A DNA stretch of 64,000 nucleotides, taken from the NCBI RefSeq assembly GCF_041886205.1, contig NZ_CP169029.1. One strand, given 5' to 3'. The DNA comes from Escherichia coli. Its GTDB lineage: Bacteria > Pseudomonadota > Gammaproteobacteria > Enterobacterales > Enterobacteriaceae. Shown one piece after another: positions 21,275 through 23,331 of the stretch. Position numbers and translations under genes: made by a program. The notes beneath the pieces were generated by a model. The model was not told where the DNA came from. It was given only the letters and a program-made list of their open reading frames with translations, and made no database searches. Each line of letters begins with the position of its first letter. Positions within the stretch are counted from its first letter, which is position 1.

Positions 21275-21591
21275 GGCCTGCCTCACTGTTTGACGGAAAA
21301 AATGTGTAAAACACATTAACCGTCCGATCTTGCTTAAGCAATTGGCAGACAGAGACATAAACACGGGGTAATAAGAATAAACAGGAGGAAAGGTGAAAAG
21401 AAACGATAAAATCCTCCATTACAGAGGATTAAATTGATAATAAATCGGCTCAATCCCACAACTTACAGCAATTTCTCTATTTTTTTAATTAATCCTAAAA
21501 TAGAGAGCCCACACATTCAGGATAAAATCCTACATTCAATAAAAAATGCAGAATAAACCAGACATTGATGTCTGACCTATTCTGCATTCAG
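21275..21591. promoter_or_regulatory. ilvIH upstream regulatory region (Lrp-controlled promoter expected here)
   Basis: Position between leuO 3' end and ilvI start; established knowledge that ilvIH is Lrp-activated from upstream sites. Individual sites not mapped. Confidence 0.4.
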
Positions 21592-22536
21592 TTAGCGTTT
21601 GCAAATTGAGACTAATTGCTCTTCCATCCACTGATGACCTTTATCGCGCCCGGCAGCCTCATGCCAGGAGAGATAACAGGTTCTGCTATTTTGTTTTAAC
21701 GGCAGCGGTAATACCTGTAATTCTAAGGATTCAGCGAACTCTTCAGCCAGCCAACGCGGCGCAATAGCGACCAGATGCGTTTGCGACACCACGCTAAGTA
21801 CGCTCATCATTGCCATGCCCTGATACGCGATACTGGCTTGCTTATCTACCGTGTCATACCACGGTTGACTAAATGATGCGAAACGATCGAGCGAAACCGC
21901 CGCATGTTGTTCGTTATAAACATCATGTTTCAGTAACGGGCCTTTAATTGTTGGATGATTTTTGCTGGCTACCAGCACCATTTCATCTTTAAATAATGGC
22001 ACGCTGGTAAATTCAGGACGATGGAAGTCTTCATAACTAATCACAAACTCCGTTTCCTGATAACGCAGCTGATGTTCAGTGTTCTGATTTAATGAAGACT
22101 TGAACATGACATGTATATTTGGCGCAATCTGCTCAATGTGATTATAAATCTGCGAGGTCAGAATGCTGTCTAACGGGCTGCAAACACAAAGATGAAATAC
22201 ACGTTCACTGCTCGCGGGTTCAAAACCTGAACCAGGCAATTCATTTTGTACTAGTTGCAATGCCTGACGAACTGAACCAAAAAGTTGAAATGCGCGAGCA
22301 GTCGGTTGAATACCACGGCCATAACGAACAAAAAGCTCGTCATTAAACATCACCTTCAGGCGTGCAACAGCGTTACTGACCGCAGGTTGCGACATTCCCA
22401 GAACATGAGCGGCACGGGTAATGTTTTGCTCCTGCATCACGGCATCGAAAACGGTTAATAAGTTGAGATCGACCATGCGTAGCTGTGGCTTGCTTAACTC
22501 CGCCGTCTCTGGATGATCTGTTTGTACCTCTGGCAT
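21592..22536 (-). CDS. leuO: LysR-family transcriptional regulator LeuO (314 aa)
   Basis: ORF track 342 aa; known start at internal [30 protein letters not shown]... Confidence 0.93.
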
Positions 22537-23194
22537 ACTTAACTCCACTGTCACACTTAACTCCCTTTCCCTTATTGGAATGCAGAGAAATAATCCTGAA
22601 GAATATGATTTATCATGCATATAAAATAAGAAAAAGGAAAATGAGTAAAATTAGGAAAACATAAAGATACGGGTTCTTATAAAAACAGAATCCATTGCCG
22701 TGGAAAGCGTCATTTACCACAGCATAATAATCCATAATGTTTTTGTTGCGAAAACAATCTAATCATAACTACCGCGAATACTCAATCATCTACAAAATGG
22801 ATTAAATGTGCTTATTTAATAATTAATTTATATATTTAATGCATTAATTCTTAACATTAATCGATCAATAATATTCACCATATCAATATCAAAAAACTCG
22901 CAAAACATATAATTCAATACAAATCATAAGGATAGGTTTTTCTACCTGTGCATTTTGTCCCCTTTTTCCTCGTTGATTAGATGCAAAAATTTATTCTGAA
23001 ATATGTCAACCTATGAAAAGCGTCGGTAGTTAAGCAGAAATTAATATCGCTTGTTTTAACCACAGCAGCACAATTAGCTAATTTTACGGATGCAGAACTC
23101 ACGCTGGCGGGACGTTTTTGTTACGTCAGGGTTGACATCCGTTTTTGTATCCAGTAACTCTAAAAGCATATCGCATTCATCTGGAGCTGATTTA
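22537..23194. promoter_or_regulatory. leuO–leuL divergent intergenic region (658 bp, strongly AT-rich; H-NS-silenced leuO promoter and leu promoter)
   Basis: Long AT-rich tracts (e.g. aattaatttatatatttaatgcattaattcttaacattaatcgatcaataatattc); matches the known leuO regulatory region. Confidence 0.65.
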
Positions 23195-23281
23195 ATGACT
23201 CACATCGTTCGCTTTATCGGTCTACTACTACTAAACGCATCTTCTTTGCGCGGTAGACGAGTGAGCGGCATCCAGCATTAA
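23195..23281 (+). CDS. leuL: leu operon leader peptide LeuL (28 aa; four consecutive Leu codons)
   Basis: [28 protein letters not shown]; GGAG Shine-Dalgarno before the ATG; the 63-aa track ORF is an upstream extension. Confidence 0.92.
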
Positions 23282-23302
23282 GCCAGCACGCAGTCAAACA
23301 AA

Positions 23303-23331
23303 AAACCCGCGCCATTGCGCGGGTTTTTTTA
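23303..23331 (+). terminator. leu attenuator (intrinsic terminator)
   Basis: cccgcgc-cattg-gcgcggg followed by T7 immediately after leuL and before leuA. Confidence 0.88.

Follow-up and report, generated by a model that had tools for sequence, protein, structure and literature searches.

Introduction

The spacer that separates leuO from the leucine operon is a textbook case of H-NS silencing and of promoters that are coupled through supercoiling. LeuO, the regulator under the control of this locus, antagonises H-NS and activates CRISPR-Cas, bgl, efflux and virulence genes. Transcription of leuO starts from two promoters, both of which are repressed by H-NS and StpA; the site from which BglJ-RcsB activates the proximal promoter, P2, is ~70 bp upstream of it, and the LeuO autoregulation sites are located more than 100 bp from the BglJ-RcsB site (PMC5025477, PMC3950696). 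In Salmonella, H-NS nucleates upstream of leuO, and transcription entering from outside or supercoiling generated nearby lifts the silencing, which is the modern form of promoter relay (PMC6797219, PMC10981669). In EMSA, a 344-bp fragment from the leuO–leuL spacer is shifted by SlyA, and three independent ChIP datasets show leuO bound by H-NS (PMC5797941). The spacer of Escherichia coli K-12 is also listed as an H-NS-associated promoter island, 83898_426 (PMC3661553 Table 1), and the spacer binds RpoD holoenzyme in vitro (PMC3946193). Toward the leucine operon, LeuO, which is responsive to 2-isopropylmalate, binds the promoter region of leuLABCD (PMC12494820), and a MarA ChIP-seq site within leuL<>leuO, gcacaattagctaat, shows strong binding in vitro (PMC5684230).

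Here we describe the corresponding spacer within 64 kb of E. coli DNA (the whole stretch analysed, called the window; all positions refer to it unless stated otherwise). The feature itself is already known from K-12 and Salmonella, and the modest value added by our analysis is comparative: across the Enterobacteriaceae, the long AT-rich spacer, the marbox and a promoter-like module that includes a putative RcsB-type half-site are kept, the high-affinity LeuO palindrome is restricted to Escherichia, and the leuO start may have been placed 6 codons too far downstream.

Results

The leuO–leuL gap is the G+C minimum of the window

ORF calls place the gap between leuO and leuL at exactly 22537-23194, a length of 658 bp. 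The order of genes in the window, whose orientation is the reverse of that in K-12, is ilvH and ilvI (minus strand), yabR, leuO (minus strand), the gap, leuL (plus strand), leuA, leuB and leuC. With leuO on the minus strand opposite leuLABCD on the plus strand, the locus has the divergent architecture of LysR-type regulators. Its left boundary is the leuO coding sequence (21592..22536, minus strand, with ATG at 22534-22536), recognised from the ORF and its translation as encoding a 314-aa LysR-type regulator that has no differences from LeuO of K-12. The right boundary is leuL (23195-23281, plus strand), which encodes a 28-aa leader peptide with four consecutive CTA Leu codons, and the leucine operon leader and attenuator match Rfam RF00512 (Leu_leader) at 23181..23330 on the plus strand with a score of 145.8 bits (gathering score 50; E = 2e-33). 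RefSeq annotation of K-12 and of strain VE-T9 gives the same gene order and no feature of any kind in the gap. A first-pass annotation of this DNA had called the stretch a 658-bp divergent leuO–leuL control region, and the ORFs, the K-12 and VE-T9 annotation and the Rfam leader match together confirm that assignment.

The same annotation had described the region as extremely AT-rich with long AT tracts, and this is borne out by its composition. The spacer has a G+C content of 32.2%, compared with 52.9% for the 64-kb window, and is the G+C minimum for its length: only 9 of the 63,343 windows of the same length are lower, all of them overlapping the spacer, and the next lowest non-overlapping 658-bp region has 39.8% G+C. 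Within the spacer, the lowest 50-bp window falls to 14% G+C, a pure A/T run of 29 nt occupies 22812-22840, and ten A/T-only runs reach at least 8 nt. Tracts of at least 4 A/T nucleotides occur at 3.4 times, and TpA steps at 2.4 times, the density found in the window. This composition is far beyond chance for the 64-kb window. Hexamers resembling -10 elements (TANNNT) are present at 21-33 per kb in the spacer versus 8.8 per kb in the window; a strict two-hexamer promoter scan of the spacer found 4 promoters against 5.9 expected, and thus no excess. The AA/TT dinucleotides of the spacer gave no clear 10-11 bp periodicity or curvature signal.

Several features of the neighbouring DNA were also recorded. 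The spacer between leuO and ilvI (21300-21600) is likewise AT-rich, with 32-34% G+C in 200-bp windows, and it contains a real hidden small gene that is located next door to, and outside, 22537-23194: the small protein gene yabR (21393-21437, plus strand), identical to K-12 YabR. Directly past leuO there is a long hairpin resembling a terminator (21544-21589).

The spacer allele is rare among E. coli genomes

The first-pass annotation had pointed to K-12 as a comparison to make. The spacer is 96.8% identical to the leuL–leuO region of K-12 (83709-84367 of NC_000913.3), with 21 differences that include a 1-bp change in length; in the flanking coding DNA, identity to K-12 is 98.8% for leuO and 99.4% for leuA. 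Locus and flanking genes are the same in both genomes, and the promoter-like block, the marbox and the leu promoter (described below) are unchanged. The RcsB-type box differs by one base, at the degenerate k position of its core (T here, G in K-12), and the LeuO palindrome by one base within its 5-bp spacer. The window therefore carries a slightly divergent allele of the known feature in which every recognised element is intact. Four of the differences from K-12 are clustered within 7 bp, in a hypervariable patch at 22941-22947.

A query that includes the spacer (22437-23300) matched 5,399 of 5,426 complete E. coli genomes. Identity reached at least 99% in 7 of the 5,399 and 100% in strain VE-T9 only, and this allele of the spacer is therefore rare in E. 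coli. Partial matches in about 27 genomes and split matches in 18 suggest further insertions or deletions at the leuO–leuL locus. In E. coli FDAARGOS_943 (locus L083, 5288-6160), IS1A stands in place of leuO, yabR and most of the spacer, of which only the leuL-proximal ~160 bp (window position 23034 onward) is kept. Carriage on plasmids was considered and rejected, as all nine plasmid matches are to non-mobilizable records of 0.4-4.9 Mb that are probably chromosomal sequence filed as plasmids.

A long AT-rich spacer with six conserved blocks is found across the Enterobacteriaceae

With LeuO as the probe, we fetched 80 loci, each from a different species of Enterobacteriaceae. The divergent leuO–leuL arrangement is present in all 80, and the spacer ranges from 549 to 753 bp in length (median 633) and from 31 to 44% in G+C content (median 34%), while the leuO and leuA genes of the same loci have 42-58% G+C. 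The similar length and low G+C content of the spacer in all 80 species indicate that a long AT-rich spacer is ancestral and not a recent acquisition. Low G+C is typical of foreign DNA, and one E. coli strain carries IS1 at the leuO–leuL locus, which could be taken to mean that the AT-rich stretch was acquired horizontally as an insert or is left over from a mobile element. We give that explanation next to no chance, however, since a spacer of similar length and composition occupies the same place in 80 species of many genera, its ends carry conserved regulatory blocks of the host, and it contains no transposase or repeat-element features.

Sequence conservation within the spacer is limited to short blocks, and the centre is poorly conserved among the 80 species. 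Three of the blocks are read on the leuO (minus) strand: block 1 (22537-22570) is the leuO ribosome-binding region; block 2 (22602-22636) is promoter-like and near-invariant, with no indels across genera; and block 3 (22647-22666) contains a putative RcsB-type half-site. The spacing between blocks 2 and 3 is free of indels in nearly all genera. Block 4 (22757-22786) reads ATCTAATCATAAC...AATAC.CAAT and includes, on the leuO strand, a -10-like hexamer, TATGAT, that lacks a suitably spaced -35. On the plus strand, block 5 (23066-23082) is the marbox and block 6 (23129-23176), which is strongly conserved, is the leu promoter.

Blocks 2 and 3 resemble a leuO promoter with an upstream RcsB-type site

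On the leuO strand, block 2 (22602..22636, minus strand) has the form CTTTTTCT-N13-TGATAAATC, that is, a weak -35-like element (22629-22636) followed by an extended -10 (22607-22615), from which transcription is predicted to start near 22600. Block 2 is a candidate for the proximal leuO promoter, P2. Block 3 (22647..22666, minus strand) is a candidate for the BglJ-RcsB site, since TTTTCCTA, at 22652-22659 on the leuO strand, matches wwTTCykA, the RcsB-side core of the BglJ-RcsB box (PMC3950696). This core is unspecific by itself, as the window has 28 matches where 26 are expected, and the assignment of block 3 is a putative one.

A consensus scan yielded a candidate for the distal leuO promoter, a sigma-70-like TTCGCA-17-TATTAT at 22724..22752 on the minus strand. 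Its two hexamers are those listed for leuO in a SELEX study with RpoD holoenzyme (PMC3946193), and it is poorly conserved across genera.

The AT-rich core is a likely H-NS nucleation zone adjoining a LeuO palindrome

The AT-rich core of the spacer (22801..22870) combines three adjacent ATTAAT-type palindromes, the 29-nt A/T run, candidate SlyA sites and decamers resembling an H-NS motif. Three matches with up to 2 mismatches to TCGATAAATT, which we take to be the H-NS high-affinity motif, fall within 46 bp of this core (22825-22870); the spacer contains no exact copy. Judged from these features, 22801-22870 is likely to be an H-NS nucleation zone. Two published candidate SlyA sites map here, to 22828-22839 and 22836-22847 (sequences from PMC5797941), the fragment used in the SlyA EMSA likewise maps to the spacer, and the equivalent of promoter island 83898_426 (leuL/leuO) extends over approximately 22580..23005 when its K-12 coordinates are converted.

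The first-pass annotation had described this region as known for H-NS silencing of leuO and for promoter-relay effects. Published work on the K-12 spacer, to which ours is 96.8% identical, and on Salmonella supports both (PMC5025477, PMC3950696, PMC6797219, PMC10981669), and association with H-NS agrees with the three ChIP datasets that flag leuO (PMC5797941) and with the listing of the K-12 spacer as an H-NS-associated promoter island (PMC3661553).

Adjoining the core is the candidate LeuO binding-site I core (22871..22889), a 7-N5-7 palindrome, ATATTCACCATATCAATAT, with T-N11-A, so that the spacer contains a palindromic box of the LysR type. It shares 16 of 19 bases with the perfect palindrome of the K-12 casA-cas3 spacer, ATATTCACAGTATGAATAT, and agrees with the description of this LeuO core that Fragel et al. 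gave (PMC6698644). Among the 80 loci, the palindrome is confined to Escherichia, where 13 of 14 half-site bases match; other genera are at chance, with no better-than-chance matches in Salmonella, Citrobacter, Klebsiella, Enterobacter and others. High-affinity autoregulation by LeuO may therefore be lineage-specific.

The leuL end carries a marbox and the leu promoter

A marbox of the MarA/SoxS/Rob type occupies 23065..23084 on the plus strand. Its core, GCACAATTAGCTAAT (23068-23082), is a 15-mer that is the same in sequence as the published MarA ChIP-seq site in leuL<>leuO. The core is kept in 61 of the 80 species, and its distance from the leuL ATG is fixed at 117-137 bp. A regulatory role for this marbox, whether at leuL or at leuO, seems to be unstudied in the literature. 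[quoted passage not shown]

Small ORFs and RNAs in the spacer

Because AT-rich silenced regions can hide small genes, the first-pass annotation had raised, as marked speculation, the possibility of hidden small proteins or antisense RNAs. The two strands of the spacer contain 36 ORFs of 10 codons or more; we screened all of them against the 80-species alignment, and all except one are intact in no more than 17 of 79 species. The exception, a 19-codon ORF at 22605-22664 on the plus strand, is intact in 48 of 79 and is the sole small ORF that is preserved widely. A small protein gene at this position would be antisense to the leuO promoter, and its frame is stop-free in 60 of 69 indel-free sequences, compared with 52 ± 2.4 (maximum 58) under column-preserving permutation; this excess, however, can stem from shared ancestry. 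The ORF falls exactly on blocks 2 and 3, whose conservation fixes the start, stop and first six codons of the ORF: the ATG is within the conserved -10 element, the stop is within block 3, and the constant spacing between them keeps the frame. In about 20 species the ATG has become ATC or ATT and the frame is usually open regardless, which means that its openness is independent of translation. Residues 7-19 of the 19-aa peptide change radically between genera, and entropies of 0.57/0.54/0.73 at codon positions 1/2/3 show no clear excess at the third position. The Shine-Dalgarno sequence is weak, K-12 has no annotated gene at this position, and the peptide sequence was not found in the searchable literature. 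We consider it extremely unlikely that the ORF is a gene and conclude that it is, by all these sequence features, most probably a by-product of DNA-level constraint on the A-rich strand. A separate candidate, a uORF starting from the ATG at 22616, was rejected because only 2 of the 79 species keep it intact.

A functional small RNA or antisense RNA encoded in the spacer appears to us very unlikely. The density of -10-like TANNNT hexamers, together with the promoter island listing and RpoD holoenzyme binding in vitro, makes short or spurious transcripts plausible when H-NS is absent. Against a functional product, no Rfam family other than the Leu leader was matched, with none inside the spacer even at E <= 1, and no terminator-like site was found inside it. 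In addition, the promoter scan gave no excess, the centre of the spacer is poorly conserved, and no conserved RNA structure was detected in the leuO 5' region (consensus energy -0.44 kcal/mol, z = 0.02). The ORF screen, Rfam search, structure analysis and terminator search thus leave the suggestion of hidden small proteins or antisense RNAs unsupported, and we regard the spacer as probably non-coding.

Two conserved in-frame start modules at the 5' end of leuO

The translation-initiation region of leuO (22537..22568, minus strand), within block 1, consists of two tandem, in-frame Shine-Dalgarno/start modules that are 18 nt apart. In the upstream module a strong Shine-Dalgarno sequence, AGGGAG (22561-22566), precedes GTG (22552-22554), and in the downstream module GGAG (22543-22546) precedes the annotated ATG (22534-22536), both on the minus strand. 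The conserved sequence on the leuO strand is AAAGGGAGTTaAGt GTG ACA GTG GAG TTA AGT ATG. The motif is present in 75 species. Of these, 72 have a start codon at the upstream position (58 GTG, 14 ATG), and at the downstream position 63 have ATG and 5 have GTG. A downstream start is lacking in seven of the species, from Kluyvera and Pseudocitrobacter, and every one of them has ATG upstream; the downstream start stands alone in 3 of the 75. This pattern of codons across the 75 species argues that both positions act as start codons somewhere in the family.

It is possible, though we would put it at somewhat less than an even chance, that leuO has two conserved in-frame starts, that the gap is really 640 bp, and that LeuO is wholly or partly a 320-aa protein. 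In E. coli records, the 320-aa form is annotated in 101 contigs, compared with at least 1,000 for the 314-aa form. A leuO start that is mis-set by 6 codons would be a question of annotation and would not add a new kind of feature. A third in-frame ATG farther upstream, at 22620, which would give a 342-aa LeuO, was rejected, as its frame is open in some genera only and is unconserved.

An 18-nt unit (GGAGTTAAG-type) is present in three direct copies within 22482-22562, with start-to-start distances of 45 and 18 nt. The copies are located, one each, in the 5' UTR, across the annotated leuO start and within leuO codons 12-18. The arrangement suggests that the translation-start region was duplicated in tandem long ago.

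Discussion

We are highly confident that 22537-23194 is a non-coding, divergent regulatory spacer that contains H-NS/StpA-silenced leuO promoters and counter-silencing sites, with a marbox, a promoter and an attenuator at its leuL end; none of our observations contradicts this. This reading builds on the coordinates and composition of the spacer, its identity to K-12 and the family-wide conservation of its length, composition and blocks, all of which are observed here; protein binding and silencing are taken from the K-12 and Salmonella literature and would apply to this allele by analogy. According to that literature, the AT-rich centre would recruit H-NS (and StpA), and the resulting filament would silence the leuO promoters. 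The leuO end would have a conserved promoter, preceded by an activator site of the RcsB type and, farther upstream, by the LeuO palindrome and the SlyA sites. Silencing of leuO would be overcome by BglJ-RcsB, LeuO, SlyA and LrhA, which have been described as its activators or counter-silencers, and also by supercoiling from neighbouring transcription, i.e., promoter relay. LeuO with 2-isopropylmalate would bind the leu promoter region, and at the leuL end the marbox would be followed by a strong leu promoter and then by the leucine attenuator that controls leuLABCD.

Among related systems, the region of the Salmonella leuO / leu-500 promoter relay is the orthologous spacer. It is 645-655 bp long, with 33-34% G+C and the same end blocks, yet it is only about 60% identical and lacks the near-perfect Escherichia LeuO palindrome. 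The K-12 ortholog of our spacer is listed among the E. coli promoter islands of Panyukov and Ozoline (2013) and is H-NS-associated, and -10-like hexamers are dense in our spacer; whereas most promoter islands are linked to horizontally acquired genes, the leuO–leuL island is ancestral to the family. The spacer also resembles bgl, cas and yjjQ-bglJ, which are silenced by H-NS and counter-silenced by LeuO or BglJ-RcsB, in having AT-rich regulatory DNA and the same regulators, and the LeuO core palindrome is common to the cas promoter and the leuO–leuL spacer. Unlike at bgl, cas and yjjQ-bglJ, however, the silenced gene here is the counter-silencer itself, and it is transcribed divergently from a biosynthetic operon that has an attenuator.
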